DNA of 64,000 nt from the IMG/VR virus record IMGVR_UViG_3300037455_000402, positions 10,951-74,950 of that record; one strand, 5' to 3'. The notes below the pieces were generated by a model. The model had not been told where the DNA came from and made no database searches. It saw only the letters and a list, made by a program, of their open reading frames with translations. Shown piece after piece: positions 1,239 to 64,000 of this stretch. This stretch comes from a virus (Duplodnaviria; Heunggongvirae; Uroviricota; Caudoviricetes). How positions within the stretch are numbered: the stretch's first letter is position 1; every line of letters starts with the position of its first letter. The position numbers and the translations under genes were made by a program.

Positions 1239-1462
1239 TATTTTCTCCTTTCAATCTCCATATGGCGGATACTACTACCCGCGGCTTGAGCAGAAGCTTG
1301 AAGCTCCATACTCAGCCATTATCTGATAACCTACATCAACGATGTCTGCATCAGTTGGGTAGAAAGCAAACTTCTCTTCGAAGCACTTCATCTCACCATC
1401 GTTGAATAAAAGATAGTAATTAACTGTATAAGGCATAAATCATTCCTCCGTTCTTTTGGGAA

Positions 1463-8480: not shown

Positions 8481-8552
8481 CTGAAGCTGAGGAGACTCGA
8501 ACTCCTAACCTACGGCTTCCCGCCGCTGCTCTCCCTATTGAGCTACAACCCC
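8481..8552 (-). pseudogene. tRNA-Ala-like pseudo-tRNA or tRNA-like element (no canonical anticodon loop, no CCA)
   Basis: 5' half GGGGTTGTAGCTCAATAGGGAGAGC nearly identical to tRNA-Ala at 3317-3395; G3:U70 kept; anticodon arm GCGGC-GGGAA-GCCGT has a 5-nt loop. Confidence 0.4.
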
Positions 8553-12664: not shown

Positions 12665-12702
12665 CTATATATATTATAACAAAAATTTCTTTAAAAGTAA
12701 AG
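12665..12702 (-). promoter_or_regulatory. consensus promoter TTTACT-N17-TATAAT
   Basis: CTTTACTTTTAAAGAAATTTTTGTTATAAT. Confidence 0.65.
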
Positions 12703-12770: not shown

Positions 12771-13265
12771 TTAGCCTTCTACCTTATTGACAATTTCACT
12801 ATCACAAAGCAAGTAACGGTCAGAGAGCTGTGCTATCTGGTTATACCAAACATCACCTGCATATGCCATTACCCTGTCATAAAGGTTTGTATAACAAGCT
12901 AAGTAAAAACCTACAAACTGTCTATATGCTTTACGATATGCTATCGCCTTAGCAAATTCAATATCATTAGCGTCGCCGACTCTAAGTACAGCTGTGCCGT
13001 GATATTCATAGTCAGTAGGGTCGTAAATATAAGAGTTTGAGCCGCTTATCTTCTCGGGACGGCACCAAGGTTCGTGCGCCCACTTAAACTGAGGAGTAGC
13101 TGCAATATTCATACCAATCATCTGTGCTGTACGCATAAGGATATAGTAAGGGTCTCTCGCTTCAAAGCCCTCAAAAGTAACAAAGCAGTGAACCTAACTT
13201 CCTGCATAACCATATCTAACGTCCTTAACACGAATCTTCACATTAGGACAAGAATACTGAATTTC
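12771..13265 (-). CDS. hypothetical protein, reading frame contains one in-frame TAG (codon 26)
   Basis: MNEIQYSCPNVKIRVKDVRYGYAGS-TAG-VHCFVTFEGFEARDPYYILMRTAQMIG...; strong GAGGAGG RBS only at the upstream ATG (13265). Confidence 0.5.
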
Positions 13266-13301
13266 GTTCATTTTTAAATCCTCCTCAGAATTGATTTTAT
13301 T

Positions 13302-13748: not shown

Positions 13749-13825
13749 TGGTTTCTCCGCTGCGATTCGAACGCAGGAATGGCAGTTTTAGAGACTGCTG
13801 TCTTGAGCCACTTGACGACGGAGAA
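13749..13825 (-). tRNA. amber suppressor tRNA(CUA), Gln-like
   Basis: U1-A72 acceptor TTCTCCG/CGGAGAA, D-arm TCGTCAAGTGGCTCAAGAC, anticodon stem GCAGT/ACTGC loop CTCTAAA (C34-U35-A36); CCA encoded. Confidence 0.75.
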
Positions 13826-14269: not shown

Positions 14270-14344
14270 TGGTTGCCGCGCAAGGAATCGAACCTTGGTA
14301 CGAAGGGTTAGAGCCTTCAGTCCTGCCACTTAGACGACGCGGCA
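14270..14344 (-). tRNA. amber suppressor tRNA(CUA), second, Gln-like
   Basis: U1-A72 TGCCGCG/CGCGGCA, D-arm TCGTCTAAGTGGCAGGAC, anticodon stem GAAGG/CCTTC loop CTCTAAC; CCA encoded. Confidence 0.75.
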
Positions 14345-14500: not shown

Positions 14501-14538
14501 CTATAAATATTATATCATAAATTTTTATAAAAGTCAAG
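14501..14538 (-). promoter_or_regulatory. consensus promoter TTGACT-N17-TATAAT
   Basis: TTGACTTTTATAAAAATTTATGATATAAT. Confidence 0.7.
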
Positions 14539-29138: not shown

Positions 29139-29456
29139 TTAACTTCGTCTCCTTCTTTTTACTCCAATAAATTCTTCTCCCCAAAGGTCTTGGGGCTCTA
29201 AGTCTCCCACGAAATATTTCTCGCCACATTGACAAGAAATTCCATGTCTTACTATAACATCTGCATCTACTTCTACTATATAGGTAAGAGGAACTTTCTT
29301 GTTTAAAATTAACTTCATTATTTCACAACCATATCTTTCTCCATGAAGCTCTGCCCACCGATTTAATTCAGCAAGGTCATCATCATCAAAATTTACATCT
29401 TCACGACTCCAAATCATATCATTACCTCTTTCTGTATTTCTCTCATATCTTTCCAC
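29139..29456 (-). CDS. hypothetical protein (105 aa)
   Basis: ORF track. Confidence 0.5.
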   Translation of the reverse strand: MERYERNTERGNDMIWSREDVNFDDDDLAELNRWAELHGERYGCEIMKLILNKKVPLTYIVEVDADVIVRHGISCQCGEKYFVGDLEPQDLWGEEFIGVKRRRRS

Positions 29457-29701
29457 TCTTCCTCGGTAAGAACACAGTTATCAAAAAACTCTGCCCAGTC
29501 TTTATAGTGTCTCGGACCAATAATTTTGCTCTCATCGAATGGCGGCAGCTCTGCCTTATCTTTCTGAGAAACGTAGCCCTCAATGATATATTTAGAAACA
29601 GTTGAAGGAGAGCAGCCGACTATCTCAGCTACTCTCTTCTTAACGCCGAGTTCGAGATATAATTCATTTATCTGAATTTTGATTTCGTCTGTTATTTTCA
29701 T
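29414..29701 (-). CDS. helix-turn-helix DNA-binding protein (putative transcriptional regulator)
   Basis: KKRVAEIVGCSPSTVSKYI helix-turn-helix segment. Confidence 0.55.
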   Translation of the reverse strand: MKITDEIKIQINELYLELGVKKRVAEIVGCSPSTVSKYIIEGYVSQKDKAELPPFDESKIIGPRHYKDWAEFFDNCVLTEEEWKDMREIQKEVMI

Positions 29702-29852
29702 CTTTACCTCCTAAATCTACAACCCTTCCGTGTAACCACTGACCTTTTGTTGCAACAGGAACTCGAATAATAGGATTGTCTTTATCTTCAGCTATGACTA
29801 TCTTATCGCCATAAATGGTTTTGAAGAAATCAATCAGCATATCCTCAATCAT
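29664..29852 (-). CDS. hypothetical protein (62 aa)
   Basis: ORF track. Confidence 0.4.
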   Translation of the reverse strand: MIEDMLIDFFKTIYGDKIVIAEDKDNPIIRVPVATKGQWLHGRVVDLGGKDENNRRNQNSDK

Positions 29853-30385: not shown

Positions 30386-30407
30386 TTCCTTTCCTCCTTT
30401 TCATTTT

Positions 30408-30445
30408 CTATATATATTATATCATAAAATTTTAAAAAAGTCAAT
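30408..30445 (-). promoter_or_regulatory. consensus promoter TTGACT-N17-TATAAT
   Basis: TTGACTTTTTTAAAATTTTATGATATAAT. Confidence 0.7.
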
Positions 30446-30746
30446 AAAAAAAGGACGTAAAATTTAATACGTCCTTATAATTCTACCTTTATTGAAATAT
30501 ATATCTTTCCCAGTCATTAAACCTCTTGTTTTTATAACTGAAATCTTTTCTCCTTCTTCTTCTGTGTAGTAACAGAAAAGAAAAGGCGGAAAAGTGTATT
30601 TATGAAAAAGCATTAAATGATTATACATAAGATTGCGGCGGAAGAAGAGAGCATCTTCTTCATCTGCAAAAAGGAAGAAGAAGTCATCTGCATCACTGGG
30701 GAATAGAATTACTCCACCATCAAAGAAAAGTGCGCCGCCGATTTGA

Positions 30747-31073
30747 TTATGTCTGAACGTCATTCTCCTGTTCCTCTTCCCAAACGGGCGCCTCATCAGG
30801 TATAGTAAGCCACTTATTAGCTAAGAAATGACCTACAGCTTCAAGCTTAGGCTTACCTTCGCCGTCCTGTCCAAGACGAATTCTTATAGGTGAGCCAACG
30901 AGCTGCTCCCATACTTCCTTATTGGCAATATCAAGAACCTGCTGAATATTGTCAGTGTTAAGTTCAAGTGCAAATACTGCCGTGCCTGACTGTTCATTTA
31001 CAACTACTCCACATACAATCTGAAATGCGGTAGCATTAAGTAAAGTCTGCTGAATTACGCCATTAGTTTCCAT
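30747..31073 (-). CDS. hypothetical protein (108 aa)
   Basis: ORF track. Confidence 0.5.
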   Translation of the reverse strand: METNGVIQQTLLNATAFQIVCGVVVNEQSGTAVFALELNTDNIQQVLDIANKEVWEQLVGSPIRIRLGQDGEGKPKLEAVGHFLANKWLTIPDEAPVWEEEQENDVQT

Positions 31074-34567: not shown

Positions 34568-34580
34568 ATTTTGATTACCA

Positions 34581-34850
34581 AGAAATTCCTTCTATTTTAA
34601 ATGGTGGGAATATTTCTTCTTCTGACGACTCTTCAACTTTTGCATTTCGTATTACAGTAGCATTAGTAGCATAAAACTTTACTTCAATCTCAGGAAGACC
34701 CCAGCAAGTATCTCCACGTTGAGACCATACTGGAACGCCTCCCTTAACATCATATTCTACCTACGCCTTTTCGCCGCCGTCCAGAGTTACATTGAGAATT
34801 ATTTTATCAACTGATATAATCTTATCATTATTCGCTAACGGCACCTTCAT
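34581..34850 (-). CDS. small protein with one in-frame TAG (MKVPLANNDKIISVDKIILNVTLDGGEKA-TAG-VEYDVKGGVPVW...)
   Basis: TAAGGAGAATG RBS; frame continues through TAG to TAA at 34581. Confidence 0.45.
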
Positions 34851-36837: not shown

Positions 36838-37407
36838 TTAATCCTCCTTCAGTGTCCAGCCATTCTTCACCAGAATTTGGTAAAATTCATTTTCTTCTTC
36901 TAAGTATTTAGAAAACTCTTTTTTAGTCAGAATTTTATTAGCGCCGCCTTTCCAGCAGAGGTCTGTTTTAAGAATCTCAAATATAACAGTATCACAAATT
37001 TTCCTATTCTGTGGCGCTCCATTACGACGGAGAGTTCCCACTTCTACGCCGCCGTATTCTTTAATGATACGACGATAAAGCTTCAAGGCTTCAATGTTGT
37101 TAGCATAACAACGCCATTCTGCACTTTCGACACCGAACTTTTCAAACATATCTTTGAACATCTGAATAGCATCTCGCATAAAGATACGACTCTTTTTTCT
37201 GAAAGCTATCAAACCAAAGTTCATTGCACGTTTTGACGGCTCATAAACCCAATAGGAAAAATAGCCTAAGACTTCTCCATTTTCATCGACTGAAACAAAC
37301 TGATACTGATTATCTGGCTTGTCCGCAATATCAGGTATGCCTGGCGTTGTATCATAGTAGTACATATAATCAGGGTCATACCAAGTCTCTGCCATTTTTA
37401 ATTTCAA
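36838..37407 (-). CDS. GNAT-family N-acetyltransferase-like protein
   Basis: central ...FGLIAFRKKSRIF...NNIEALKLYRRI..GG acetyl-CoA binding-like region. Confidence 0.4.
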   Translation of the reverse strand: MKLKMAETWYDPDYMYYYDTTPGIPDIADKPDNQYQFVSVDENGEVLGYFSYWVYEPSKRAMNFGLIAFRKKSRIFMRDAIQMFKDMFEKFGVESAEWRCYANNIEALKLYRRIIKEYGGVEVGTLRRNGAPQNRKICDTVIFEILKTDLCWKGGANKILTKKEFSKYLEEENEFYQILVKNGWTLKED

Positions 37408-37432
37408 CTGCTATTCAAAAAGTATTGCAGGT

Positions 37433-37729
37433 TTAATCATTGTTCTCCTCCTTATTATCTGCGTTTCTACCGATATGGTACTTGCCGCAGTAAAGACATT
37501 TGTAATAGCTGAAATGTACGCCTTTCTTTTCACCCATTTTCTCAGCACATTTCTTAGCTGTTTCTACGGTATTATACGCTACTTTTGGCTGACCAGAGTG
37601 CTGATTAATATGAGAGTTGATACTAAATAAACCCAATGAGTTATGGGTAATAAAGAAATTCTTAAACCATTGCGGCTTGCTTAACTCAAATCTCAAGGCT
37701 TCAAAAAAATATTTAATCTTAATTTTCAT
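37433..37729 (-). CDS. hypothetical protein, C-terminal CxxC
   Basis: start at MKIKIKYFF with AGGAGAAAGTAATG RBS. Confidence 0.45.
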   Translation of the reverse strand: MKIKIKYFFEALRFELSKPQWFKNFFITHNSLGLFSINSHINQHSGQPKVAYNTVETAKKCAEKMGEKKGVHFSYYKCLYCGKYHIGRNADNKEENND

Positions 37730-37740
37730 TACTTTCTCCT

Positions 37741-37937
37741 TAAATAAAATTGATAGCCGCAAGCACATTCATATCCTTTATAGCAACACCCTGCACGTGG
37801 CGGTGCAAATATCACCATCTTCATCCAATGCTTGGGCACTTTATATCTTCCGCTGTTGCCGCCGTGCTATTTAACGTGTTGCTAAAAATCTTTTGATAGA
37901 ACTGCAAGTTCTTCTTTTGTAAAAGAATAAACATCAT
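37741..37937 (-). CDS. small Cys-rich protein with two in-frame TAG codons
   Basis: AAAGGAGGAAGGAAAATG RBS; MLDDVYSFTKEELAVLSKDF-TAG-QHVK-TAG-HGGNSGRYKVPKHWMKMVIFAPPRAGCCYKGYECACGYQFYLRRK. Confidence 0.4.
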
Positions 37938-37968
37938 CAAGCATTTTCCTTCCTCCTTTTATCTTTAT

Positions 37969-38006
37969 CTAATTATATTATATCATAAATAATAAAAAAA
38001 GTCAAG
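37969..38006 (-). promoter_or_regulatory. consensus promoter TTGACT-N17-TATAAT
   Basis: TTGACTTTTTTTATTATTTATGATATAAT. Confidence 0.7.
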
Positions 38007-38283: not shown

Positions 38284-38295
38284 AAATCCTCCGAT

Positions 38296-38679
38296 TAATA
38301 ACCGAAAGCGGAACGAATAACGTTGCTGAGGTCGCCGTCCTCAGTTATGTTCAGCCAAGGATTCTCAGCAACTGGCTTAACTCTCTGAAGCTTTGAGGTG
38401 TAAGAGCAATCCAAGATTGCCGCCTTATCAGCATAAGCTGAATTATACTTCTGAGCCGCAGTATTGTAAGCTGTTACCTTATTCTTAAGGGTTGCATAAG
38501 CTGTATCAACTTCCTTACGAAGAGCTGCAAGCTTATCCTTATCCTCGATTCTCTGCTTCTCAAGAAGCTACTTACCATTCTCTGCCTTAGCATCTGCTGC
38601 AACGCAATCAGCAAGGTCGTTTACATTATACCAAATCTTACCACATACAGGACAAGTATACTTTGCCATAATAAAATCA
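38296..38679 (-). CDS. zinc-ribbon/coiled-coil protein with one in-frame TAG (codon 34)
   Basis: AAGGAG RBS; MAKYTCPVCGKIWYNVNDLADCVAADAKAENGK-TAG-LLEKQRIEDKDKLAALRKEV... Confidence 0.5.
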
Positions 38680-38802: not shown

Positions 38803-40281
38803 TCACTTCCAGCAGAACTGTGGACGTGTAAGTATCTGTGTCATAGCCTCAACAGAGTCCATTGTAATAAGAGTTGTAAGCTCCTTAAATGTTGCTGCTG
38901 AGCTACCAGAAACATATGCGATGCCAGGGTTGCCACACTTACTAATGAAACGATTACCACGAGAGCATACGTTCCACATAATAAGCTTAGGAGCAACAAG
39001 ACCAGCCTTAGCATAAGCCTTCTGCCACTTCTCAACGATAGTATCAACGTTGCCGCGTGAAGCGAAAGCGTCAATCTCACCGTCTGAGATTATAACAAGT
39101 GCCTCAGGTGCCTCGCCTGCCTTTATAGCAGTACGATAAATAGCATCGAAAGCGCCGTCGAGGTTAGTGTTGTAACCTACGTGCTTCATTACCTCGTTTA
39201 CACGAGAAGCAACGGTATCAGTTGGGTTAAGCTCATAAAGAGAAGGTCTGTCAGTGAATGTAAGGAAGAGGTTCTTGTAAGGACCTGAGTTACGCTCAGC
39301 AAAGTAAATACCAAGAGATACAGAAGTAGCAATTGGCTTATTACCCTCGCAGTACATAGAACCAGATACGTCTGACATTACAATGACATTGTGCTCACCC
39401 TCGACATAGTCAGGAAGAGCCTTCCACTGAGCCTCAAGAACCTTATCAACCTCAAGGTTGTAACGTGAATACCAACCTGAAGTCTGGTTAATGTAAGGCA
39501 TAATAAGGTCATATGGGTAAGATACACTTGCGTTAATCTTAGCCTCGCCCTTAGTAACAGCGTTAATGAACTTGTCAAAACGCTCATAGTCGTGACGACC
39601 GAAAGCAGAACGGTATCTTGTCATAGCGACAGATGGAACTGCCTGATAGTCGATAGCACCGAACTGGTTAGAAGACATCTTCTTCTCAACGACATCAAGG
39701 TACTTACGAAGAGCTGCGAGAGTCTTACGATATGTACGCTCGGTTATGCCGAAGTAAGTGTAGACCTTACGAGCAAGTCTACGAGTCTCCTTAGAGCTGG
39801 TGTTTGGAGAAGGAAGCCACTTAGCAAGAAGAGATATGCTCTCGTTCTTGGTCATGTCCTTAATATCCTTAGTAAACTGAGCCTTCATAAACTCAAGAGC
39901 CTCTGTCTCGACAGAAGTTCCCTCAAGGACGAACAAGTCGTCCCAACGACCTGCAGATACGATAGTATCAAGATTGCGAGCAACCTTTGCAGGGTCCTTA
40001 AGTGCAAGAGTCTTCAAAAGAGTTCTTGCAATTCTACGCTCACCGATACCACCCTCACGGATGTTACGAGCATAAAGTATCATATTGTCAGCAAGCTCCT
40101 TGTCAGAGTTGCGGGCATCAAGATACATACGGTTAAGCTCAGCCTCAGTAGCCTTACGCATACCACCAATTCTTGCAAAAAGGTTTAATACAGGGTTACC
40201 AGTAGTAGAGCAAACCTTAGCACCGTTCTCGGTGTAAGCTACATTTGTCTGATTTCTGAATGAGTTTGCGAAATTACTCAT
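38803..40281 (-). CDS. Ro60 ortholog (TROVE domain + C-terminal vWA; Rsr-like)
   Basis: 492 aa; N-terminal TROVE-like region (…NPVLNLFARIGGMR…); C-terminal vWA MIDAS VIVMSDVSGSM and ...PKLIMWNV... pattern comparable to Ro60 LLAVDVSASM...LIVCGMT. Confidence 0.6.
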   Translation of the reverse strand: MSNFANSFRNQTNVAYTENGAKVCSTTGNPVLNLFARIGGMRKATEAELNRMYLDARNSDKELADNMILYARNIREGGIGERRIARTLLKTLALKDPAKVARNLDTIVSAGRWDDLFVLEGTSVETEALEFMKAQFTKDIKDMTKNESISLLAKWLPSPNTSSKETRRLARKVYTYFGITERTYRKTLAALRKYLDVVEKKMSSNQFGAIDYQAVPSVAMTRYRSAFGRHDYERFDKFINAVTKGEAKINASVSYPYDLIMPYINQTSGWYSRYNLEVDKVLEAQWKALPDYVEGEHNVIVMSDVSGSMYCEGNKPIATSVSLGIYFAERNSGPYKNLFLTFTDRPSLYELNPTDTVASRVNEVMKHVGYNTNLDGAFDAIYRTAIKAGEAPEALVIISDGEIDAFASRGNVDTIVEKWQKAYAKAGLVAPKLIMWNVCSRGNRFISKCGNPGIAYVSGSSAATFKELTTLITMDSVEAMTQILTRPQFCWK

Positions 40282-41714: not shown

Positions 41715-42626
41715 TTAATGAGCTGCCATATCAGCTTCATGAAGAAGCTCATAAACTGCTCTCATTTCGCCGCCGTAAAGACGCTCAAACTCATCAATGA
41801 AATTGTCTCTGAAATAATACTCCATATGCCACTGAATAAGGACAATAAGTGCTGCATAAAAGTCGTACTGCTTAGAAGCAAACTGACCAACACAACAAGC
41901 TACCATATAGGCTCCCACTTCGTGGTGATTATAGAAATGTGAATGGTCATCTTCCTTGCCGTTATACTTCATACGGGACTTAACGACAGGCTTACCAATA
42001 TCGTGGAATAATGCGGCAGTACGTGCAAGATGCTTAAGGTTCTTATCCAAACCCTTCTCTGCCGCGTGGTCAGAAGCGTACTTACTTGCCTCTAACATAT
42101 GATGAAATATATCAAGCTGATGATGAGGATTATCGTGGTCTACACCACAAGCATCAAAAAGATACTCACCGAGCGTCTTCTTGTTCTTAGGATTTGGAAT
42201 CATACGGATAGAGTCCCAGCCCTCATCAAGACGAGGAAGAGACATTTCTCTATACATACGCCAGATAACCTCTTCAGGAACGTGACGCATACGATTAGCG
42301 TTCTGCTCTAAGATAACGTCGATTTCCGTAGCTGCTACTACAGCAATCTTCTTAACGTCCTTAGGAAGTTCCTTTAAAAAATTCTTTCTACGCTTACGAG
42401 ATAAGTTCGTTGCGTCATAAACACAAGACTGTCCATTTGCAAGGTAGTTCTTTATACGCTTATGAAGCTCGTTGAATACCTCGCCGTTATGAGACTGGTC
42501 GTCCTCAGAACCGAATAACTCTGCTCGGATAGCATCTGAGGAGACAATAGGACAGCCAAGGTCACGAGCAATGAATGACTTACCAGAGCCAGCTACGCCG
42601 ACCATCATATAAAATACAGCACTCAT
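41715..42626 (-). CDS. P-loop NTPase/kinase fused to HD-domain phosphohydrolase (candidate polynucleotide kinase-phosphatase or dNTP hydrolase)
   Basis: N-terminal MMVGVAGSGKSF Walker A; C-terminal HD motifs (LFHDIGK, HHEVGAY, H..D). Confidence 0.55.
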   Translation of the reverse strand: MSAVFYMMVGVAGSGKSFIARDLGCPIVSSDAIRAELFGSEDDQSHNGEVFNELHKRIKNYLANGQSCVYDATNLSRKRRKNFLKELPKDVKKIAVVAATEIDVILEQNANRMRHVPEEVIWRMYREMSLPRLDEGWDSIRMIPNPKNKKTLGEYLFDACGVDHDNPHHQLDIFHHMLEASKYASDHAAEKGLDKNLKHLARTAALFHDIGKPVVKSRMKYNGKEDDHSHFYNHHEVGAYMVACCVGQFASKQYDFYAALIVLIQWHMEYYFRDNFIDEFERLYGGEMRAVYELLHEADMAAH

Positions 42627-42696: not shown

Positions 42697-43848
42697 TTAT
42701 TTAAAAGATTTTATTGTTGACTCATTATCAGAAGTGTAAAGGTTAATCTTTCCTTCCGCCGCCGTAAGTATCTCTGTTCCTGCAAACTCATTAGTATGAG
42801 TTACCACAAGAGAAGGCTTAGCTTTAATACCCTTCATTTCAAAATACTTAGAGTCACGAATAGCTCTTGCTACTGCGGCGTTAGCTTCTCTTTGGTCAAA
42901 TTTACCATAACGAAGAGTTCCCTGATTAGGGTTAGGCACATTCGTAGCATCAAACATATCGGCATTGATTGCCGCCTTATCGCACTCAAGGTTAGAAGTC
43001 TGTCCTATCTGTCCCTTGCCGTGACGAGTAAGGTATGTACGAGTTACATAGAGGGTTTCAATATCTACTTCCCCCTTGTCAAAGTTCTGGGCGATTATCT
43101 GAGAAGGCACTTTCGCGCCGACATAGGCAGGAGTATTATGCTCGAAGTCATAATTGTGGTCATCCGCAAGAAGAAGTCCCTGACCATTCTCAAAGACGAG
43201 AAGAGGATAAGAATGGAGAAGCGCCTTCTCTTCTGTATCATTCTTAATCAAGGTAATATGGTCATAAAACCACTGGAAGTCCTCGTCAATATTTGGTTCG
43301 AGATATTCTCCGTGAAGAAAGTTAGTAACATCTTCAGGAAGTGTACCGTCCTTATCTCTAAGGACATCCTCATAATACTTGATTATAGTATCAAGATGAT
43401 AATGAGGTGTACCTGCCATTTCAGTACAAACCCTATGACGATTTAATGACTCCCAAACGCCGCATCCCGTAGATGAATGAGACTTATCGCCGCGGCGCTC
43501 TTCTACGTTTACATTTGCAAACATATCAACGGGAGATACCATAACGCCGCCTATTTTTGCATAGACCTTGGGCGTAATTCCCATAGCTTCAAGTTCTTCC
43601 CACTCACGTCTGAACATAGCGGGATTTACCATAAACTCTTCGGAAAAGTAAGTAGCGGCACCTTTGAGAGTACCGCTACCAAAGTGGCGGAAAACTCTCC
43701 TTACGCCGTTTTCTACTACCGTATGCGCCCTCTGACAAGAGTTTGAGGGCAGGATATTGAGACAGGTTGGTGTAGATACCGCATTGGCAACGAGTCCTTT
43801 CGACTCGTCACCATAGTTAAGTCCAGTTACGATTTTAATTTCCGCCAT
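42697..43848 (-). CDS. adenylosuccinate synthetase homolog (PurA/PurZ family)
   Basis: GLNYGDESKG (PurA GDEGKGK P-loop), AHTVV (GHT), STGCG (TTGRGIGP), YVTRTYLTRHGKG; 383 aa. Confidence 0.55.
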   Translation of the reverse strand: MAEIKIVTGLNYGDESKGLVANAVSTPTCLNILPSNSCQRAHTVVENGVRRVFRHFGSGTLKGAATYFSEEFMVNPAMFRREWEELEAMGITPKVYAKIGGVMVSPVDMFANVNVEERRGDKSHSSTGCGVWESLNRHRVCTEMAGTPHYHLDTIIKYYEDVLRDKDGTLPEDVTNFLHGEYLEPNIDEDFQWFYDHITLIKNDTEEKALLHSYPLLVFENGQGLLLADDHNYDFEHNTPAYVGAKVPSQIIAQNFDKGEVDIETLYVTRTYLTRHGKGQIGQTSNLECDKAAINADMFDATNVPNPNQGTLRYGKFDQREANAAVARAIRDSKYFEMKGIKAKPSLVVTHTNEFAGTEILTAAEGKINLYTSDNESTIKSFK

Positions 43849-49311: not shown

Positions 49312-49701
49312 TTAATCCCAAAGGAAACCATGCCATTCGGCAAACAGTTTAAACCCTTTGTCAATAATCTTTTGCTGTTTTTCGTCGGGCATAAATTCTG
49401 TACAATACAAATAAAATGCCCTAATCATTTTATCAACGATATTATCCCAAGCCCTTTTAGCTTTGGCATCATTTTTATCATAACGCCAATAAATAACCCC
49501 AGGGATGCCGCCTGCTGCTTCACGATAATGAACAAGTCTTACTAAAGTAAAGTAAGCAATTTCAAAATCTAAATTCCAAATGTCCTCATAGTGGAAGCCC
49601 CACTTCTCGAAGAACTCCTAAGAATGATAGCCAGCGCTGGTCTACCAACAAGGCTTGGCACAGTTAATTGCTCTTCTTAAAGTAATTTTATTCTTCTTCA
49701 T
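49312..49701 (-). CDS. hypothetical protein with two in-frame TAG codons (129 codons)
   Basis: GGAGTGAGGGAATG RBS; MKKNKITLRRAINCAKPCW-TAG-TSAGYHS-TAG-EFFEKWGFHYEDIWNLDFEIAYFTLVRLVHYREAAGG...; ends TAA. Confidence 0.45.
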
Positions 49702-52897: not shown

Positions 52898-53257
52898 TTA
52901 AATTCTAAAAGAGTAAACCTCATCTGACTTTGCTGCAATTAGTTGTGTATCTATTGGTGAAATAAATTCATCGACTACCGCCATATCCCAGCGGTCTCCA
53001 CGAGGCATATGGTCTGAGACAATTAAAACTTTAATTATATTACGTTTCTCTTTATCAATCAATTTAACTGTTGTAGAAGAAATAGTACAATCATAGCTTT
53101 TATTCATAGACAAAACTCTGTGGTCTTTTACCATAAAGGCAAGTATCCTATCCCTTGCCCATGTAAAATGTTTCTCATTAGCAACAGCAATACAAGCGGT
53201 AAAATTGTCTTCTGTTAAAAATCTATGAAGTAAAAAATTAATTTCTATATCGTTCAT
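52898..53257 (-). CDS. hypothetical protein (119 aa)
   Basis: ORF track; ATG overlaps TAA of upstream GIY-YIG gene. Confidence 0.5.
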   Translation of the reverse strand: MNDIEINFLLHRFLTEDNFTACIAVANEKHFTWARDRILAFMVKDHRVLSMNKSYDCTISSTTVKLIDKEKRNIIKVLIVSDHMPRGDRWDMAVVDEFISPIDTQLIAAKSDEVYSFRI

Positions 53258-54270
53258 TATGAATTACCTGCCGTACTATTGTATCCCCATGTATTTGCAT
53301 GGTAGAATGAAATGTACTCCTTTTCCTTTCCATTTAATTCGTCAGTATCACATTCAGCAAGAACTTCAAAAGTGAAATTCTCTGCACCCTCTTCCCACAT
53401 TGCATTATAAAGCTTATTAGAAGTACCTGGCTCTGCTTTTACACCACGCTTTAAGTGAGTACGCCAACGTTCCTTAAAAGCCTATTTTGTTTGTCCGATA
53501 TAAACTTTGCCGTTTTCGAGATTGGTGATTTTATAGATACCAGTATTGCCACGTCCAGTAACAACTCGTCCTACCATTTCATTGAATGGACGCTCATAAT
53601 AGTTCTTATAAATTAATTTGTAAAGAACAGAAGGGTCGTGAAGTTCGTCGGCAATTTTGCGAAGCTTCTTAACATCTTCAATATCATTTTCAGAAAGAAC
53701 AATACGATAGAAATTTTTATCTTCTTTAATCTTTTCTGCTCTTTTATATTCCTCAATGATTTCTTGCTATTTAGCTTCAGCAGCCTTGACTTCTTTTTCA
53801 AGTTGAGCCTTTTTAGCTTTCATTTCAACAGAGAAATTCTAAAATTCTTCTGATATGTTAATCTTCTACTGGTCATAATAATCCATTACAGATTGAAGTT
53901 GTAGAGCCCCTTCTTTTGATTTGTTCTGTACCTCAGTAGCAAGTTCTGCCGCCAAAGCTTGGAGCTAATCGTCTCTTCGCTTACGAGCTGCCGCAAGGTC
54001 CATATCTAAATTCTTTATAGATTCTTCAATGGAACGACGCTTTCTCGCTGCTTCTTCTATAGCATTACCGAGTTCAAGTTTAATAGCTAATTCTTCTTCA
54101 CTAATTCTTTTCTTACGCTTAGCTTCGAGAGCCTTAAGAGCTTCCTATTTGGCTGTTTCAAAATCTTTAACTGCCTTTTCAGAAACAGATATCTGCTGGT
54201 GAACGGCTAAACAATAGCCGCCCCAGCCCGCAAAAAGACAACAGATTATAGCAATAAAAATATATCCCAC
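53257..54270 (-). CDS. GIY-YIG nuclease-domain protein (N-terminal TM helix + coiled coil), six in-frame TAG codons
   Basis: single frame from GTG (GAGGTGG RBS) to TAA; C-terminal GIYKITNLENGKVYIGQTK-TAG-AFKERWRTHL...KLYNAMWEEG...NFTFEVL GIY-YIG signature lies downstream of the TAGs. Confidence 0.6.
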
Positions 54271-54281
54271 TATAATCCACC

Positions 54282-54860
54282 TCAGTTTATAAGAAGTTCC
54301 TTTGCCATTGGAAGTGTTTCAATCCAAGCGCAGAACTCTCTCCATTCAGGAAGCCTATGGTTTTTACGCTGTTTATAGATATTTCTAAGACAACGATAGT
54401 TAGTTGTCATTCGAGCAGTAATTCTAAAGCCGCATGGATTGCTGTAGAGAACTCTTAAATAGTTCTCAGGCGTAGGATTTTCAAGATACTCTGCTACAAG
54501 TTCTTTCATTATTACAATCATACGAGGGTCTACATATTCGATATATGCGTCATCAAGTTCAAACTTGGTAATACGATGCATTGTAGACTATGATGATACA
54601 AATTCGAGAAAACGATAACGTTCTGCTTCAACCCAAGCCTTATTGGTAAAAGTTAAGTCAAAGTTGACACGAATACCAGTTAAGAACTATCCGTGTGCCT
54701 AATTATCATTATCAACCGCCTTGATTAAATTCTCTATACGCTTTAAATCTTTGTCGCTTAATATCCTATTATAATCCTACAGTTCAGTTCTCATAGGATA
54801 ACCAGATGCAATTATAGAATTGGTAAGGTCATATACTTCTGCATTATTTACTATACTCAT
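54282..54860 (-). CDS. hypothetical protein with four in-frame TAG codons
   Basis: ATG 54860 overlaps TGA of upstream gene; frame MSIVNNAEVYDLTNSIIASGYPMRTEL-TAG-DYNRILSDKDLKRIENLIKAVDNDN-TAG-AHG-TAG-FLTGIRVNF...FVSS-TAG-STMHRITKFELDD... runs uninterrupted to TGA at 54282. Confidence 0.5.
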
Positions 54861-55433: not shown

Positions 55434-55714
55434 TATTCTTCTCCTTTCATTGAAGTAAATACTTCATCCATATTAGTTGCGATTGCATATGTTGATGACT
55501 CACTCCTTGCCATAGGAAGATAAATCATTGCAACGACTGATGCCGGCCACTTCTCAGCTAATGAAAAATCATTAAATGAAATAGCGTCCATATAAAAGTC
55601 CTGTTCAAGTTTATTCGGATAATTTTCAAGAAATTTAACAAATTCCTCTTTAGTACAGGGCTCCCTTTTAGGCTTAATAGTATACTTCTCACCACAATCC
55701 CAATCTTGCATCAT
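55433..55714 (-). CDS. hypothetical protein (93 aa)
   Basis: ORF track. Confidence 0.5.
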   Translation of the reverse strand: MMQDWDCGEKYTIKPKREPCTKEEFVKFLENYPNKLEQDFYMDAISFNDFSLAEKWPASVVAMIYLPMARSESSTYAIATNMDEVFTSMKGEE

Positions 55715-56289
55715 TCTTCTCCTTCTTCCTTAATCTCAGAACGGGTTTCTTTGCCGTCTTCCATAGCATCCCACTCTTTTAATCTGTCAAGTGTGTCAAT
55801 AAGTTCATCTGTATTAAGAGGATTATAACTCCATTTCGCCGCGTCAGCAGAGAGCATAATACCATTATATAATCCGTCAAAAGGATTTTCACTATCTGTT
55901 ACAAGTAAAGTATATGTCTTTGCATAATCAGACTGAGCCTCTACCTTCTTAATTACATAGAGAACCTCTCTACCATCAGGATATGTATGGAACATAGATA
56001 CGCCCCAGAAATGTTTAAAGCCTATCTCTCTCCATTCCTTCTTGGTAAATTTATCATTTAAATGTCTTGAAGTTGCTATCTTTTCTCCGTTTAATTGAGA
56101 AATAACTTCCTTCATTTCTTCTAATTTGCCGCTGCCTATATTTCCCATTATAATAACAGAGTCTTCAGGCTTGACAACTTTGTTCCAAGAACGAACAATC
56201 CAGTTATTCATTGCGGCAAAAGAGGGAAAGCCAAGCTTATCCCTCTACTCATTATCAAATAGCCTTAAATCTGCTATGATATATGTTGC
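55711..56289 (-). CDS. hypothetical protein; probable TTG start with one in-frame TAG upstream of the first ATG
   Basis: GAGGT RBS + TTG at ~56289; LATYIIADLRLFDNE-TAG-RDKLGFPSFAAMNNWIVRSWNK...; ATG at 56211 has no RBS. Confidence 0.35.
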
Positions 56290-56306
56290 CAATTACCTCA
56301 CCTCAA

Positions 56307-56600: not shown

Positions 56601-56631
56601 AGTCCTCCTTTTATTTATTTTCTATAATTAT

Positions 56632-56669
56632 TATATCATAATTGTAATCAAATGTCAAGTTTTTAATAA
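56632..56669 (-). promoter_or_regulatory. consensus promoter TTGACA-N17-TATAAT
   Basis: TTGACATTTGATTACAATTATGATATAAT. Confidence 0.7.
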
Positions 56670-57667: not shown

Positions 57668-57764
57668 TAAAATTCCTCCTTTTCGTCCTTATGGACTATG
57701 AGGGGAACACGCATTTGTGTAGCGAAAACGCTACAATTATATGTAGAAATTACTAAGGAAAAGT

Positions 57765-58285: not shown

Positions 58286-59383
58286 TTAGAAGGTAATTAC
58301 TTTCTTACTTGACTTACTGAAAACATTACCAGCCTTGGTATTATTGCTATTTGATTTGCCGCGATGAGTCTTAATAGTTGGACACCAGTATAAAGAATCC
58401 TTTGAACGGGTGGCGGCAACATAACAAATTCGTCTCTCTTCCTGACTAAATGTCTTTGCGCCAACGACAACTACATAAGGAAATTCAAGTCCCTTAGCAG
58501 AATGAATTGTCATTATTTTAACCTTATTTTCTTCGAGCAAATGCCCCATCTGTTCAAGGTCAAGGTCTCCACGTTTAACAATTACATTCGGAACTCCGAT
58601 TTTATTTAAATACCTTTCAGCTTCTTCAATTTCAGAATTGGCTCTACAAAGTACGGCCCAACCTGTCCAATCTTTTGTCCAAGTCATCTCTTCTGCCGCA
58701 TCAGCAAAAGAACAATTCTTATCTAAGAATCCCTGCTTTGTAAGTGTTGGTATTGCACAAGGTGAAATCTTAGGCATTGAATTTAAATAGTCATCGGCAT
58801 AACGAATAATGTTTGGTGGGTTACGATAGTTTTCTACAAGAAAATACTTTTTAAATGTAGGGTCTTCTGCAACTTCTCTGATAAATTTATCAGAAGCGCC
58901 GCGGAAGGAGTAGATAAACTGTCTTTCATCACCAACATAGAAACGATTTTCCGCTGGTATGCGAAGTATAAAATTGTATTGTAAAGGGTCTGTATCTTGG
59001 AACTCATCTACAAATAAGTAAGCAACCTTTGGATAAATTGAAGGCGGAACTGTTACAGCCTTTGATATAATTTTATCAAACTGCTCTTCCGCAATATCTC
59101 CATAAGTAGGAATGTTTGCAAGATTACAAATTTTATTTGCATAAGAGTGAATTGTTCCGATGAACATTCCTTCACATTTTTCACCAAGTCTCTTTCTCAT
59201 TTCCTCCGCCGCCTGATTGGTGAAAGTAAAAGCGACAATAGAAGAGGGCTCAACGCCCTCATCTAATAGTCTATTAACTCTTGCAATTAAGGTAGCAGTT
59301 TTACCACCAGCCGCACACGCAAGACAGAGGATATTTTTTTCTTTTGAATTTATAATGTTCTACTGTCGAATGTTGTATTCCAT
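58286..59383 (-). CDS. UvrD/Rep-family helicase-like protein (compact, ~365 aa) with in-frame TAG at codon 8
   Basis: GGAGGACTGCGTATG RBS; MEYNIRQ-TAG-NIINSKEKNILCLACAAGGKTATL (Walker A) ... VDEFQDTDPLQ (motif II) ... TIHSAKGLEF (V) ... VAATRSK (VI). Confidence 0.6.
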
Positions 59384-59407: not shown

Positions 59408-59445
59408 CTACATATATTATATCATAAAATTTTGAAAAAGTCAAT
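59408..59445 (-). promoter_or_regulatory. consensus promoter TTGACT-N17-TATAAT
   Basis: TTGACTTTTTCAAAATTTTATGATATAAT. Confidence 0.7.
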
Positions 59446-59447
59446 AA

Positions 59448-62400
59448 TTAAACGATATATTTACAAGTATCACTCGTAGGCCAATATAATGGTGTTGAAC
59501 CATGGAAATGTGCAGCGTGCTAATTTTCACAGTTAGCTATTTTGCTCATAATATTATCTGGTGATTCAGAATAAGTGTGTGTCTAATCATTATATACAAC
59601 TGGCTATTGGAAACCAGTACAGCTATGAAGATAGGCAATATTTGCCCTGTTATTAAATGTATCTACCGCAGCTGTACTATCTGTTTGTACAATTTTACCA
59701 TGCACGCTGGTATCTTGTCTATAGCCATTTGTCATATCAATACTAATACGAGCATCAGAAACCTAAGAAGATGTTGAGTTAAATATTTCACCAGTACAAT
59801 TATCATGATTAAATCTATTTACATCAAAATACTTAATATTGCCTATGAATTTAGCAATAAAGGTTGCAGTATAACGAGACATACCATCCGGTTGAGAAGC
59901 GCCTCCATTAATATCAATACGGTAACAAGAGTTTCCACTCTTATCATTTATAACGTAAAACTGTCTCCAACGACCACCATCAGTGACATAGTATAAAGTT
60001 GGGCTATCTCCATAATTGTAGAAATAACCTTCATATCTTCCTATCGGTGCGCACATTACAATTTTACCGAGTACAGTATCTCCAACTTTAACTTCGGGGT
60101 CTCCATCTGCTGTTTCGCCAGGGGATAACTATCCTGCCTATGGAGATATAGAACTCATGTTAATATTGTTATAAGCATTTATATATCCAGACAAATCATT
60201 CTTATCATCAGAGGCATCTAATCCAGTTAAACTTTTAACTGACGGAATATAGAAATACATTGCATGAACTAATGAGCTATCCCAATAAACGTCGCCCCAA
60301 CCTGTAGAACCTTCATTTGTTCTTCCGCCGCCTTGCCAAGGAGTCAAACCAACTGTTGTAACAAAAAAGGCTGGGTTCTTGGAAATATCCTTATTTGTGC
60401 CATAATAAGCTTTAATGAAATTCTTTACTGCTACAAGTCCATCATAGTTCAATGTTGCAGTAGTAGGATATTTACAAGATTTTTCTACTGGAGGCTAACT
60501 GTAACAAATATTATTGCCTAATCCACTTGGGCAATTATCTTTTTCACTACCATCGTAAGCTTTATTATAGGTATCCCATCTGAAACGATAATATCTGGTG
60601 TTTGTATTTGCAGAGTTATATACTCTTGTTTTAGTAACATTGCCTCTCATTGAAGTAAATTTATAAGTTGAACCAGCTTTTACAGAAGACATTGTAAAAG
60701 CAGTATCGCCGCCGTTATCTGTTGGTAAATAGTTTCCTATCTTTAATACATAAGCGTTATCAGTAAATAGGTTTTCAGAAGATGTTTCTTCTGCAGTTTT
60801 CTTCTTCCATGAAACTGTTTCACCCATATAGTATCCCTATCTATTTATGCCATAGTCACAAACATGAATTCCCTAATCATAAACAAGAGGTACATCTAAA
60901 TCAGTGGTAAAGCCAAAAGTGCTTGTTCTCTATGTCTAATTATTGTAAGTATAATAACCGAGAGGAGTAGTTGGCTGTCCAGCCATACCACTATCATCAA
61001 CAAGTTTTCTTGCGGCATCTTCAATAATAAAATAATTACCTTGAGAACTTCCAGTTGAAATTGTTATTTTTCCTTCATCGTCACGACTAAATGAATTAAA
61101 GAAAGGAGTAATTCTTAAATTACCATAACAAGTTTTCTTTTTTCCATCGGGACTTACTACAACCTAAGCTTTATCAAAAGGTCTTAGCCACATTATTCTT
61201 CCATTATAGTCCTGATTTGTACCATAAATAAAAGGAGAAAATCTCTTCTGTCCATTTTTTATGTGTTCATTACGTAATGAAATAACAAAAGCATATTCGT
61301 CTTCGCCATTTCTCTCGCAGACTTCTTTAAATTCCCAAGTCTGAGTTTTCTGATAATAAATAAAGAAGCCGGGGTAATAAACGCTACCATAATAATTATG
61401 TTTGTAATTATCAAAACGTAAATAAGGCATTACAACTAAATCCTATTCAGAATACTAATCACAAAGATAACTTAAACGCTTTTCAACGGTTTCTATAAAA
61501 TCATTTTTACTACCAACAAAAGTAACGGTATAGAAACCAGAAGCATCTACAGACCAATGAATTAATTCATCCCATTTATCAAACTTGTCATAATGACGAC
61601 AGTTCTCACTTTCACGTGGCGGCAAAGGAATATGAACAAAACGAATGTCACTCTTTGCTGTTTGATTTATTACGGCAATTTCAGTCCAAAGATAAAGAAC
61701 ATTCTCCCATAACTCTGAGACTTCTCTTGTTAATCCCTAAAGAGTCTTAGGAATTGGACCGTCAGTTCCAAATAGATAATTGCTAATAGCAGAAATAACT
61801 TGTGCGATTACCCAAAAGTTACGGTCTAAATCTTCTATCTCTACTCTGCGGCCGTACTGCGGCATTAAAAGCCTTAACCATTTTTCAATTAAGTCTTCTC
61901 CCTCTGCCTAATCATAAGCTTCACGGGTATATTGCATTGCAGTATCATTCTTTAATATCTCTAAAACTTCGTCTTTCTTTCTTACTTCATCATAGTTTTT
62001 ATCATCAATATTCCACCAAGGGTGAACCCATTCTTCTTCATTAGCTCTTTCTCCAATAGGGAAATTATATCCAGCATCAGAATTTTTAAGGTCAGCTATT
62101 GTAATACTATGTTCCTTAGTATCAAGAGGTAAAAGAATATTATCATTATTATTATCAAAATTATCAATTATATATTGAATAAGTTTCTAAACTGATTCAT
62201 TCCAATATTCATCTTCGCCGCCTTCTATTAAATCAACAATTCCGTCATATAATTTACTAACGAAAATTGGGTCGGTAGAACTACCATGGTCACGATGTAC
62301 GCAATCACAATTCTTTTCAATATAGTCCATTAAAGAATCCTAAGTCATTCCAGTTAAGGGAGAAGGCTCGCCATGGAGTGTGGCGAGCATATTCTTCCAA

Positions 62401-64000
62401 AAATCCTTCTATGTCTCAGGTGTTAAACCAATGGTCTATATTAACACACTTATATCAATAATTGTTTTTAAAGGTGTTAACCAGTTTTCCATTTAATCAC
62501 CTCATCTTGTATATCCATTATAAGGATATGCGTCATAATCAGGATATGTTGCTATTATCATATTATTATTAGGTCCTGCAGGATTGGTATTTGGAGTATA
62601 ATAGTTAATTCCAAGAATCTAATTCTTTTCTCCCTACTGCTAAACACTATAGCCTTTTTGAACCTAACAATAAGGAAAGTCTGTAAGATTAATGTCTAAT
62701 GTTCCCTCTGGAGTTGAACGAACTAAATCGCCACTTGTAGTAGGGTCATCTTTTTCTATCTTATAGCTATATAAACGTGGAATAGTATTGCTTCCACTCT
62801 TCTATAAATAAGCATAGTCAAAAAATGTTCTCATTATTAATTGTTTAGGATTTCTTCCACTATGCCAAATTGTTGACCCAGGGAATCTTTTATCTTTATC
62901 TCTCCAAGAGTGATAAAAGGCATCGGGATGACTTATTAAATCTGAATGGTCTCCTTCGATATTAGCCATAGTGATAATTTTTAAATACCAATCATCAACT
63001 TCCTAAACTAAACCTAAACCATGTTTAGTATAAAGTTCAAATCTATATGCTGAGGCGCCATTAGCTTCTGAATTTTCTGCCCATGCGCCAGGAACATTAT
63101 ATTCACTATATGTCCACATTGCTCCATTATTTGCGCCAGTACCAAATACATAAGGAGTATTACTTCCAGGCATATAAATAACCAATCCTAAATCAATACC
63201 TTGAGAACCTCTAATACCCTAATGAGGAACTAAAGTTGAATTTTCAACAGTATAATAAGTATATGTTCCGTGTGTTGGGTTATCTGTTCCTGCGTAGTAA
63301 TAATGACTTATCATTACGTAGAATTTAGATATATCTCGTTTTCCTTTTGCAACTATTTCTTCCTCAAAATATTTCTAAAGGACTTCATTTGCAGTTGCAA
63401 TTCTCGCTGCCTGATTAGTCTCTGCGGTCGCGCGGTCGCCATCTTGATATGGGAACATTTCAACACATTCAACTTCAATATGATGATTAAGTACAGCATC
63501 ATCATAAGTGCTAAGTAATTCTCCCTGATAATATCCTTTACTAATATTAATACTTCTTATACCCGGGTCTGCAGGAAACGGTACTGAATTTATTTCAGTT
63601 ACATAATCTACATAATCTTGACCTGAATAATTAATGTACTAAAAAGTAGAATAAATAAGAGTAGGTGTTCGTCCAATTAATCCCGCGCCTATATCGTGAA
63701 ATTCTATTTTTACTGTAATATAATGAGTATCATCAACTTCTCCAGCTATTTGAATATTATCTCTAAGAAGTCCATAGAATCTTGTTTCATCAGTAGTCTA
63801 TTCACTATCAGCATTAGATAAGAATGTTACGTATTTATATACATCTTCCTACTCCTATATTCCTACAATATAGTCTTTATAATCATTAACAGAGATTATT
63901 AATGGCTAAGTCATTTCCTCATCTTTATATAAAGGATGTATATCCCATGCTGCATTTTCTTTATTTCTGTCGTAAATCCAAACGCCTGGAAGCCATACAG
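59448..64000 (-). CDS. very large structural (tail-fibre/receptor-binding-like) protein, many in-frame TAG codons, continues beyond window
   Basis: ORF-track pieces 59763-60056, 60138-60452, 60495-60827, 61164-61430, 63003-63185 are all in one frame; checked junctions contain only TAG; Gly/Asn/Tyr/Thr-rich beta-type composition; TAA at 59448. Confidence 0.5.

Follow-up and report, generated by a model that had tools for sequence, protein, structure and literature searches.

In-frame TAG codons, most probably read as glutamine, in genes of a large uncultivated phage with two CUA-anticodon tRNAs

Introduction

Whether TAG ends translation or is read as an amino acid is the question raised by eight frames in a stretch of phage DNA, positions 10,951 to 74,950 of the IMG/VR virus record IMGVR_UViG_3300037455_000402 (64,000 nucleotides (nt), hereafter the window; G+C content 39.6%), which is transcribed almost wholly from the minus strand. 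A first-pass annotation had proposed that these frames begin behind a ribosome binding site (RBS), run through TAG and end at TAA or TGA, and that they should be read under a code in which TAG is a sense codon (code 15). Judged from the sequence, the eight frames are confirmed as genuine protein-coding genes with in-frame TAG. The explanation that accounts best for them, and to which a probability of about 0.87 is assigned, is that the window belongs to a large uncultivated phage whose amber codon has been reassigned, most probably to glutamine (Gln), by means of two CUA-anticodon tRNAs of its own, the eight frames being ordinary genes. Recoding of the code-15 type is an already known phenomenon and not a new kind of code.

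Gene calling and homologues support translation through TAG

All eight frames are present on the minus strand, with one, one, one, two, one, two, four and one TAG, respectively, and with TAA or TGA at their ends (Table 1). Two of the coordinate pairs given earlier were exact (49312-49701 and 54282-54860), while the other six were shifted by 1-33 nt and are corrected here. A GGAGG-type Shine-Dalgarno (SD) motif precedes every start codon upstream of TAG, in agreement with the RBS-bearing starts proposed, and gene calling based independently on SD motifs and codon usage recovers all eight frames with identical starts.

The home-made gene caller combined codon log-odds, trained on long TAG-free open reading frames (ORFs), with an SD bonus and a greedy choice of non-overlapping ORFs, and was run under four codes, density being the coding share of the non-RNA sequence. 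Under the standard code the density was 0.672 and the total score 6264, which served as the reference. Reading TAG as sense raised the density to 0.769 and the score by 702, the rise that the first-pass annotation had predicted, while in the control runs it fell to 0.665 (score -252) with TGA as sense and to 0.622 (-959) with TAA as sense. The change in score was used as the control, as counts of interrupted genes are uninformative when TGA or TAA is sense, where true terminators are overrun by a few codons. The gaps between genes that had been singled out, 306-519 nt long under the standard code, measure between -23 and 171 nt after re-calling; the statement that no non-coding stretch is left goes slightly too far, as the leftover gaps of 130-170 nt are genuine non-coding DNA holding promoter elements or spacers. 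In practice, annotation with TAG as sense is needed for the window: the standard code truncates, splits or misses 15 of its ~95 genes, among them a helicase, a phosphoesterase and a GIY-YIG nuclease.

Stop codon use is in line with this. The 95 genes called under code 15 end in TAA (73) or TGA (22) and never in TAG, and TAA terminates 27 of the standard-code ORFs of at least 120 amino acids (aa), TGA 12 and TAG a single one; the orthologues of this sole long TAG-ending ORF of the window run on past the TAG. Segments from start to TAG that are long enough to judge have a coding score in the claimed frame and a negative one in the other two frames. Compared with a relative of 88-91% identity, the frames contain no indels and the substitutions are biased to the third codon position (upstream of the TAGs, first, second and third positions differ 9, 5 and 17 times), a pattern that indicates purifying selection upstream of the TAGs. 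The base following TAG did not differ significantly from the base following CAG (P=0.07).

Two sets of relatives carry most of the comparison: L006 and L007 represent a 94-kilobase (kb) IMG/VR contig, IMGVR_UViG_3300045988_136890, that is 84-96% identical over window 8.6-48.6 kb, and L012-L016 are more distant relatives over window 49-64 kb (UvrD protein ~73% identity), in which gene calling likewise gains when TAG is read as sense. Independent homologues of seven of the eight genes have a sense codon at the TAG site and align across it from residue 1-4. CAG or Gln stands opposite TAG in the families of the 166-, 71-, 124-, 129- and 193-aa genes, an invariant Gln in that of the 192-aa gene and TGG, encoding tryptophan (Trp), in that of the 52-aa gene. 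Public pipelines translated several homologues (P0002, P0004 and P0025) under code 15. A Pfam search of the eight proteins gave no match, and a PHROGs search gave matches for only three of them. The lineage is without a close deposited relative: a megablast search of window 40-64 kb against a phage collection returned no match, and protein searches of deposited phages returned distant matches only.

Two suppressor tRNAs and the residue inserted at TAG

ARAGORN finds two tRNAs with a CTA anticodon in the window, along with 40 other tRNAs and a transfer-messenger RNA (tmRNA). The two suppressors, types a and b, are 68% identical and each is kept as its own type in relatives (type a in L092, L093 and L095; type b in L092, L095 and L096). 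Both have a U1-A72/A73 acceptor end and an encoded CCA, a signature otherwise found among the 43 tRNAs only in three tRNA-Gln and one CAU-anticodon tRNA. Both are also canonical tRNAs: the D-loop contains GG, the T-loop is TTCGA, the variable loop has 5 nt, and the general tRNA model aligns with them over their full length. The tRNA-Pyl system, which decodes TAG as pyrrolysine, is characterised by a short D-loop without GG, a 3-nt variable loop and an atypical T-loop, together with pylS and pylBCD. Pyrrolysine decoding finds no counterpart here, the suppressors being canonical and no PylS-like match occurring among 20 Pfam-scanned proteins (all of at least 236 aa included). The label 'tRNA-Pyl' that ARAGORN attaches to both suppressors is its name for a CTA anticodon. 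Elsewhere in the array, a tRNA called as Ser(GGA) (8482-8552, minus strand) is 71 nt long, lacks a long variable arm and is the sole tRNA without an encoded CCA, so that its call or identity is doubtful.

Across 114 aligned orthologous sites opposite TAG, Gln is enriched 6.2-fold (P=8e-11) and glutamate (Glu) 2.5-fold. Gln also has the highest BLOSUM sum at the TAG sites, with Glu a close second, it dominates the strictly conserved columns, and the relatives' own TAGs pair most often with Gln in the window. Peptides have shown that TAG is read as Gln in crAss-like phages (Peters et al., PMC9523058), and with this proof from other phages taken into account, Gln is likely to be the residue inserted here as well.

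The suppressors belong to a transcription unit behind a sigma70-type promoter, in the order tRNA-Lys, suppressor, tRNA-Ser, suppressor, tmRNA and, as the last gene, the 166-aa gene with TAG at codon 26, the tmRNA sitting between the suppressor tRNAs and that gene. The gene order of the tmRNA module is also found in L095 and L096, and the whole module of suppressor, tRNA-Ser, suppressor, tmRNA and 166-aa gene (L092, L093, L095 and L096) is kept down to 55% protein identity, with TAG-26 in most of its members.

The eight genes

The family of the 166-aa gene comprises four full-length homologues of 55-98% identity; L007, L092-94 and L095 retain TAG-26, and CAG stands there in L096. The latter had been considered as a standard-code relative, its gene apparently ending in TAG, but was rejected as such, as it carries a CTA suppressor tRNA and has TAA directly after the TAG and is thus also recoded. 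An AlphaFold2 (AF2) model of the protein (predicted local distance difference test, pLDDT, 66; predicted template modelling score, pTM, 0.61) places the TAG residue in a hairpin between two core strands. Compared with PDB folds, the model gave nothing with E<1, and against a viral structure library it gave weak matches to uncharacterised crAss001 and cr108_1 proteins (E=0.012-0.037, template modelling (TM) score 0.28-0.63), which are a lead and not evidence, being too weak to use. Both crAss001 and cr108_1 are crAss-like phages, a group that includes TAG-recoded lineages.

The 52-aa gene, whose ATG lies 33 nt downstream of a sigma70-type promoter, has six full-length homologues (76-92% identity), all with TGG at the TAG site. 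It is missing from the closest relative, L007, in which promoter, RBS and ATG are identical and a 166-nt indel follows them. Alignment of window 23120-23289 with L007 4893-4940 shows a common promoter, leader, RBS and 'ATGA', the 166-nt insertion of the window consisting of the 52-aa gene and a second RBS; it looks like cassette-style gain or loss of small genes by recombination at start regions. For the 91-aa gene, frame and TAG are kept in L006 (91% nt and 88% amino-acid identity) and also in the P0025 loci, which are 95% identical and in which the TAG had been rendered as Q by a public pipeline. Both TAGs of the Cys-rich 71-aa gene are retained in L006. Its homologue L106 (57%) aligns from residue 2 and has AGA at TAG-21, CAG at TAG-26 and a TAG of its own at codon 17, and the homologue L109 (36%), also aligned from residue 2, has GTA and CGT at the two sites; a scan of viral contigs for further homologues yielded only a 12-residue match that was judged spurious.

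In the 14-member family of the 124-aa gene, conservation is highest over the 33 residues that precede the TAG, and the site itself is a genuine CAG codon in L102, L103 and L104. Orthologues of the 129-aa gene in L015 and L014 align from residue 1 and have ATC and TTA at the first TAG site (I/L) and TTA and CAG at the second (L/Q). The match of the 192-aa protein to phrog_6721 (E=2.3e-43) covers residues 4-191 and thus spans all four TAGs. It has five uninterrupted full-length homologues in standard-code phages of Clostridium, Fusobacterium and Clostridioides; all of these have Gln at the position of TAG-91 (VSSQSTMH), and the nearest has Gln at that of TAG-58 as well. At TAG-16 of the 193-aa gene, L012, L014 and L015 have CAG and L013 has TTA. 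The hosts of homologous phage genes suggest a Firmicutes or Fusobacteria host.

Table 1. Coordinates of the features of the window that are discussed in the text.
Feature	Coordinates	Strand	Remarks
166-aa gene, function unknown, TAG at codon 26	12771..13271	-	SD GAGGAGG + ATG
52-aa gene, TAG at codon 3 (ATG ATG TAG)	23131..23289	-	
91-aa gene, TAG at codon 30	34575..34850	-	SD AAGGAGG; start overlaps upstream gene by 23 nt
71-aa Cys-rich gene, TAGs at codons 21, 26	37729..37944	-	first gene after sigma70-type promoter
124-aa gene, N-terminal CPxC...C motif, TAG at codon 34	38295..38669	-	
129-aa gene, TAGs at codons 20, 28	49312..49701	-	weak phrog_11543 match
192-aa gene, phrog_6721 (function unknown), TAGs at codons 28, 54, 58, 91	54282..54860	-	
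193-aa metallophosphoesterase-like gene, TTG start, TAG at codon 16	55711..56292	-	phrog_547 (phosphoesterase), residues 1-72
Suppressor tRNA, CUA anticodon, type b	13749..13825	-	ARAGORN; Rfam tRNA model 54.3 bits
Suppressor tRNA, CUA anticodon, type a	14270..14344	-	ARAGORN; Rfam tRNA model 52.2 bits
Phage tmRNA, tag peptide ANDFAFAA, tag frame ends TAA	13302..13652	-	ARAGORN; Rfam RF00023 107.8 bits
Sigma70-type promoter of the suppressor unit, TTGACT-17-TATAAT	14509..14537	-	pattern scan; next promoter downstream 12673-12701
GNAT-like gene, 200 aa, TAG at codon 10	36838..37440	-	gene caller; Pfam Acetyltransf_3
GIY-YIG endonuclease-like gene, 337 aa, 6 TAGs	53257..54270	-	Pfam GIY-YIG
174-aa gene, end ...F TAG ACT TTT CCT TAG TAA	57750..58274	-	
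UvrD-type helicase, 365 aa, TAG at codon 8	58286..59383	-	Pfam UvrD-helicase E=5e-36
Two TAG-dense genes, function unknown, 1014 aa (20 TAGs) and 470 aa (13 TAGs)	59448..63914	-	no sigma70-type promoter
Example sigma70-type promoters	59416-59444, 56630-56658, 37977-38005, 23323-23351	-	
tRNA repair set and DUF2828+DUF7788 loci	17996-18820, 21388-22512, 41715-42626, 46045-46950, 38803-40281	-	

Other TAG-bearing genes and neighbouring features

Besides the eight frames, TAG occurs in genes that the first-pass annotation had not listed or that are recoded more heavily. The GNAT-like gene was absent from its list, and its TAG-10 corresponds to GAC in L006. The UvrD-type helicase gene lies directly behind a TTGACT-17-TATAAT promoter, its start is set by AAGGAGG, and the site of TAG-8 is K, Q, K and K in relatives; an 'ATG TAG' further upstream was rejected as the start of the gene, as it is part of the 5' untranslated region. 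Orthologues of the 174-aa gene extend ~4 codons beyond TAG-170, which is therefore read as sense, and the site aligns with Y, L or TAG. Three relatives have Q at the site of TAG-263 in the GIY-YIG endonuclease-like gene. The TAG-dense 1014-aa and 470-aa proteins gave no Pfam or PHROG match, and their orthologues and paralogues in L012-L016 are TAG-rich too; in these relatives the TAG-dense proteins form tandem paralogous giants of 960-1285 aa with 5-25 TAGs each, and they could be structural proteins of the fibre or receptor-binding type.

Three further apparent genes were dropped. ORF 29414-29833 has its four TAGs in the leader and SD (T-AGGAGG-TG), the real start lying near 29700; ORF 30464-30874, with two TAGs, is spurious, given its TTG start, odd composition and overlap with a better frame; and ORF 18892-19140 overlaps a tRNA. 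At window 30386-30750, ~360 nt are without a convincing minus-strand gene under either code. TAG also occurs directly before a real terminator, as CCT TAG TAA in the window (57750-57767, minus strand) and as GGA TAG TAA in L096 (1209-1220), and a 61-aa ORF at 1251-1436 (minus strand) has a tandem TAG TAG seven codons ahead of its stop. Such TAGs may be left over from genes that once terminated at TAG, or may form double stops that are effective whether or not suppression takes place.

Among the neighbouring genes, a 383-aa PurZ-like protein (42697-43848, minus strand) matches Pfam Adenylsucc_synt (E=6e-13) and phrog_1211, '2-aminooxy adenylosuccinate synthetase' (E=2e-33); the phage may thus carry 2-aminoadenine in place of adenine ('Z-genome'). 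A kinase-plus-HD-domain protein at 41715-42626 (AAA_33-plus-HD, kinase/phosphatase) adjoins it and belongs to a tRNA repair and maturation set by the ~40-tRNA array, together with a Thg1-like guanylyltransferase and the RNA ligases RNA_lig_T4_1 and RNA_ligase. A DUF2828+DUF7788 protein is also encoded near the array.

Promoters, operons and the uneven use of TAG

A scan with the pattern TT[G/T]AC[A/T/C]-N16-18-TA[T/A]AAT found 33 near-consensus sigma70-type promoters on the minus (coding) strand, where 0.6 would be expected from shuffled sequence, and a single match on the plus strand. Each of the 33 stands between genes, in most cases 30-36 nt from a start codon. They are distributed over 2.7-59.4 kb, and the TAG-dense block at 59.4-64 kb has none, which makes the description of the eight frames as genes of early and middle regions a reasonable one. 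Many of the promoters are part of an intergenic repeat, ~60-80 nt long, with cross-matches between a dozen sites. The UvrD, 71-aa and 52-aa genes each open a unit headed by such a promoter, TAG-bearing and TAG-free genes stand in common operons, and 11 sparse-TAG genes belong to host-promoter units. Since recoded and non-recoded genes share promoters and operons, any effect of TAG on timing would act at translation and not at transcription; the window is a clean example of both kinds of gene in common host-type promoter units and operons.

TAG is present in ~16% of the window genes, and its share of the Gln-type codons is very uneven, amounting to 3.6% in the 83 genes at 1-53.2 kb, 48% in the two genes at 53257-54860 and 56% in the two genes at 59.4-64 kb (7.0% for all genes at 1-59.4 kb versus the 59.4-64 kb genes, Fisher P=1.5e-17). 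In genes with one or two TAGs, these are found at codons 3, 8, 10, 16, 20, 21, 26, 26, 28, 30 and 34, or at codons 170 and 174 of 174; 11 of the 13 sparse TAGs in the window hence fall at codons 3-34 and the other two in the last five codons. Taking all Gln-type codon positions in the same genes as the null (genes of at least 80 aa), 10 of 10 TAGs lie within the first 40 or last 10 codons versus 4.4 expected (P ~1e-4, with thresholds chosen post hoc). The TAG-dense genes show a uniform spread. The same test in L012-L016 gave 11 of 22 versus 7.7 expected (P ~0.05), the mean position was not significant, and mid-gene single TAGs are present in these relatives. Because the thresholds are post hoc and the pattern is marginal in independent relatives, the placement of sparse TAGs at gene ends is a lead and not a result.

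Discussion

In a host that would use the standard code, the two phage CUA tRNAs are expected to compete with host release factor 1 at TAG. Standing behind a sigma70-like promoter, the suppressors would be made from the onset of infection, and TAG-free genes of that promoter class would be translated at once. Genes with sparse TAGs would give a full-length product only after charged suppressor has become available, so that their output would be delayed or attenuated relative to their operon neighbours, and the genes at 53.3-54.9 kb and 59.4-64 kb, in which TAG makes up about half of the Gln-type codons, would depend fully on suppression. As to the sparse TAGs themselves, we tentatively think that they are mainly tolerated CAG-to-TAG changes (once TGG-to-TAG) and not individually designed switches; they would survive right at the beginning or the end of a gene, where little is lost when read-through fails.

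Several observations weigh against this interpretation as a whole or against parts of it. A likelihood based on substitution profiles slightly prefers Glu (E -399.8, Q -406.2, K -410.5), leaving E, Q and K not separable, an ambiguity that arises because most TAG sites are variable positions, and the D-arm of the type b suppressor resembles that of the phage tRNA-Glu (9-nt D-loop, A13/A22). The TAG of the 52-aa gene replaces an invariant Trp, and for this reason the allele may be defective. A distant homologue of the 91-aa gene was not found, a search of a representative library returning one 95% relative and repeat-protein noise. No gene for a release factor or an aminoacyl-tRNA synthetase was identified among 30 proteins scanned with Pfam or PHROGs (all of at least 236 aa included), and a host scan of 185,579 genomes with the family of the 166-aa protein gave no match. 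Furthermore, the delay of sparse-TAG genes may be small because the suppressors themselves have an early-type promoter.

These points bear on two other ways of reading the codon. If TAG were translated as a residue other than Gln (Glu, lysine (Lys) or pyrrolysine), or ambiguously by the two suppressors, this would fit the slight preference of the profile likelihood for Glu, the frequency of Glu and Lys at sites opposite TAG, which equals that of Gln, the Glu-like D-arm, the conservation of two distinct suppressor paralogues, the 'tRNA-Pyl' labels and the TAG that replaces Trp. Set against this are the enrichment, which is strong for Gln alone, and its hold on strictly conserved columns, the real CAG in place of TAG in five families, the Gln-type U1-A72/A73 acceptor end of both suppressors, their canonical structure (52-54 bits), unlike tRNA-Pyl, with no PylS-like protein among those scanned, and the peptide proof from other phages (PMC9523058), which together make a non-Gln residue improbable. 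Less probable still is that TAG is not translated at all and that the frames are pseudogenes, nonsense alleles or genes with downstream starts preceded by chance ORFs or leader peptides. The 52-aa gene might be taken that way, as one G-to-A substitution in an invariant Trp codon accounts for its TAG and the closest relative does without the gene, and three other apparent TAG-containing ORFs did prove to be leader or spurious. But seven of the eight frames have homologues aligned from residue 1-4 over the TAG sites, SD motifs and a fixed promoter-to-start spacing of 30-36 nt mark the upstream starts, no usable start follows the TAG in the 91-aa and 52-aa genes, TAG and frame are conserved without indels in independent assemblies, and suppressor tRNAs are present.

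Another explanation accepts TAG as sense and sees the sparse TAGs as selected translational gates within about the first 35 codons, which would hold back chosen genes of early host-promoter operons until suppressor tRNA is available, the conserved TAG-26 of the 166-aa gene acting as a code-switch sensor or feedback element. Abortion at an early TAG would cost only a short peptide, which would fit the positional bias in the window and the uniform spread in TAG-dense genes; TAG-26 persists in lineages with as little as 55% identity, inside the syntenic module; L106, a homologue of the 71-aa gene, carries a TAG of its own elsewhere near the N-terminus, at codon 17; and operons and promoters are common to TAG-bearing and TAG-free genes. 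This is nevertheless a tentative proposal and rather unlikely to be correct, considering that the thresholds were set after viewing the window, that the relatives are marginal and contain mid-gene single TAGs, that TAG positions turn over quickly between orthologues, with CAG for TAG in close homologues of the 124-aa and 193-aa genes, and that suppressors and their clients have an identical promoter type. Conserved Gln codons (CAG) in the family of the 166-aa gene are, moreover, equally invariant, so that retention of TAG in ~3 independent branches is weak evidence. A more elaborate version, in which sparse TAGs at codons 3-34 or at the last codons would be gates timing single genes within one transcript and the suppressor, tRNA-Ser, suppressor, tmRNA and TAG-26 protein would form a code-switch module, is more speculative and held with still less confidence. 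If it were true, the module would couple the supply of suppressor, the rescue or tagging of ribosomes failing at TAG and a suppression-dependent effector. The position of sparse TAGs at gene ends and the conserved association of the suppressors with a tmRNA and a TAG-bearing gene offer testable leads to the way in which such phages get through the phase of incomplete suppression.

Comparison with known systems

In Escherichia coli, the supE (glnV) suppressor is a mutant tRNA-Gln with a CUA anticodon that competes with release factor 1 at UAG and inserts Gln. The suppressors of the window resemble it in their CUA anticodon and apparent Gln identity, but differ in being dedicated, conserved phage genes in two paralogues, in a genome segment where no gene ends in TAG and where TAG makes up about half of the Gln-type codons of some genes. 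TAG-recoded ('code 15') phages were reportedly described by Ivanova and co-workers in 2014. Recoded phages combine in-frame TAG and suppressor tRNAs with a partial, gene-class-dependent use of the codon (Borges et al., bioRxiv 10.1101/2021.08.26.457843). Like the crAss-like, Lak and Garnet, Amethyst, Sapphire and Agate gut phages, the window has in-frame TAG in conserved genes, a CUA suppressor tRNA and TAG aligned with Gln, and as in code-15 gut phages a subset of genes is recoded, most heavily in a few blocks, some apparently early genes are TAG-free and the host would be a standard-code bacterium of Firmicutes type. In contrast to those phages, in which recoding is associated with late structural and lysis genes, the TAG-dense genes of the window are unannotated, sparse TAGs stand in operons with host-type promoters, and no gene for release factor 2 or an aminoacyl-tRNA synthetase was found in the 64-kb window (30 proteins scanned). 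The suppressors of the window are also linked to a tmRNA, which is unmentioned in Borges et al. (bioRxiv 10.1101/2021.08.26.457843).

Similar in style is phAss-1 (proposed Phassvirus), a large gut phage with 36 tRNAs, three of them tRNA-Sup-CTA (Babkin et al. 2023, PMC10607447). In-frame TAG occurs in 28% of its ORFs, those for DNA-processing enzymes among them; it lacks a dedicated synthetase, and its host is predicted to belong to the Clostridia (PMC10607447). Both are large phages with many tRNAs, more than one CTA suppressor and genes with in-frame TAG, the window differing by its 40 other tRNAs, two suppressors, tmRNA, PurZ-like gene and ~16% of TAG-bearing genes. As to kinship between the two, the megablast search of window 40-64 kb, against a collection that postdates phAss-1, gave no match, and no phAss record was among the matches listed for two protein queries. 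The window thus adds to the amber-recoded phages an undeposited lineage of large phages with ~40 tRNAs, a tmRNA and a PurZ-like gene, and what novelty remains beyond the known phenomenon would reside in the sparse TAGs at gene ends and in the module of suppressors, tmRNA and TAG-bearing gene.

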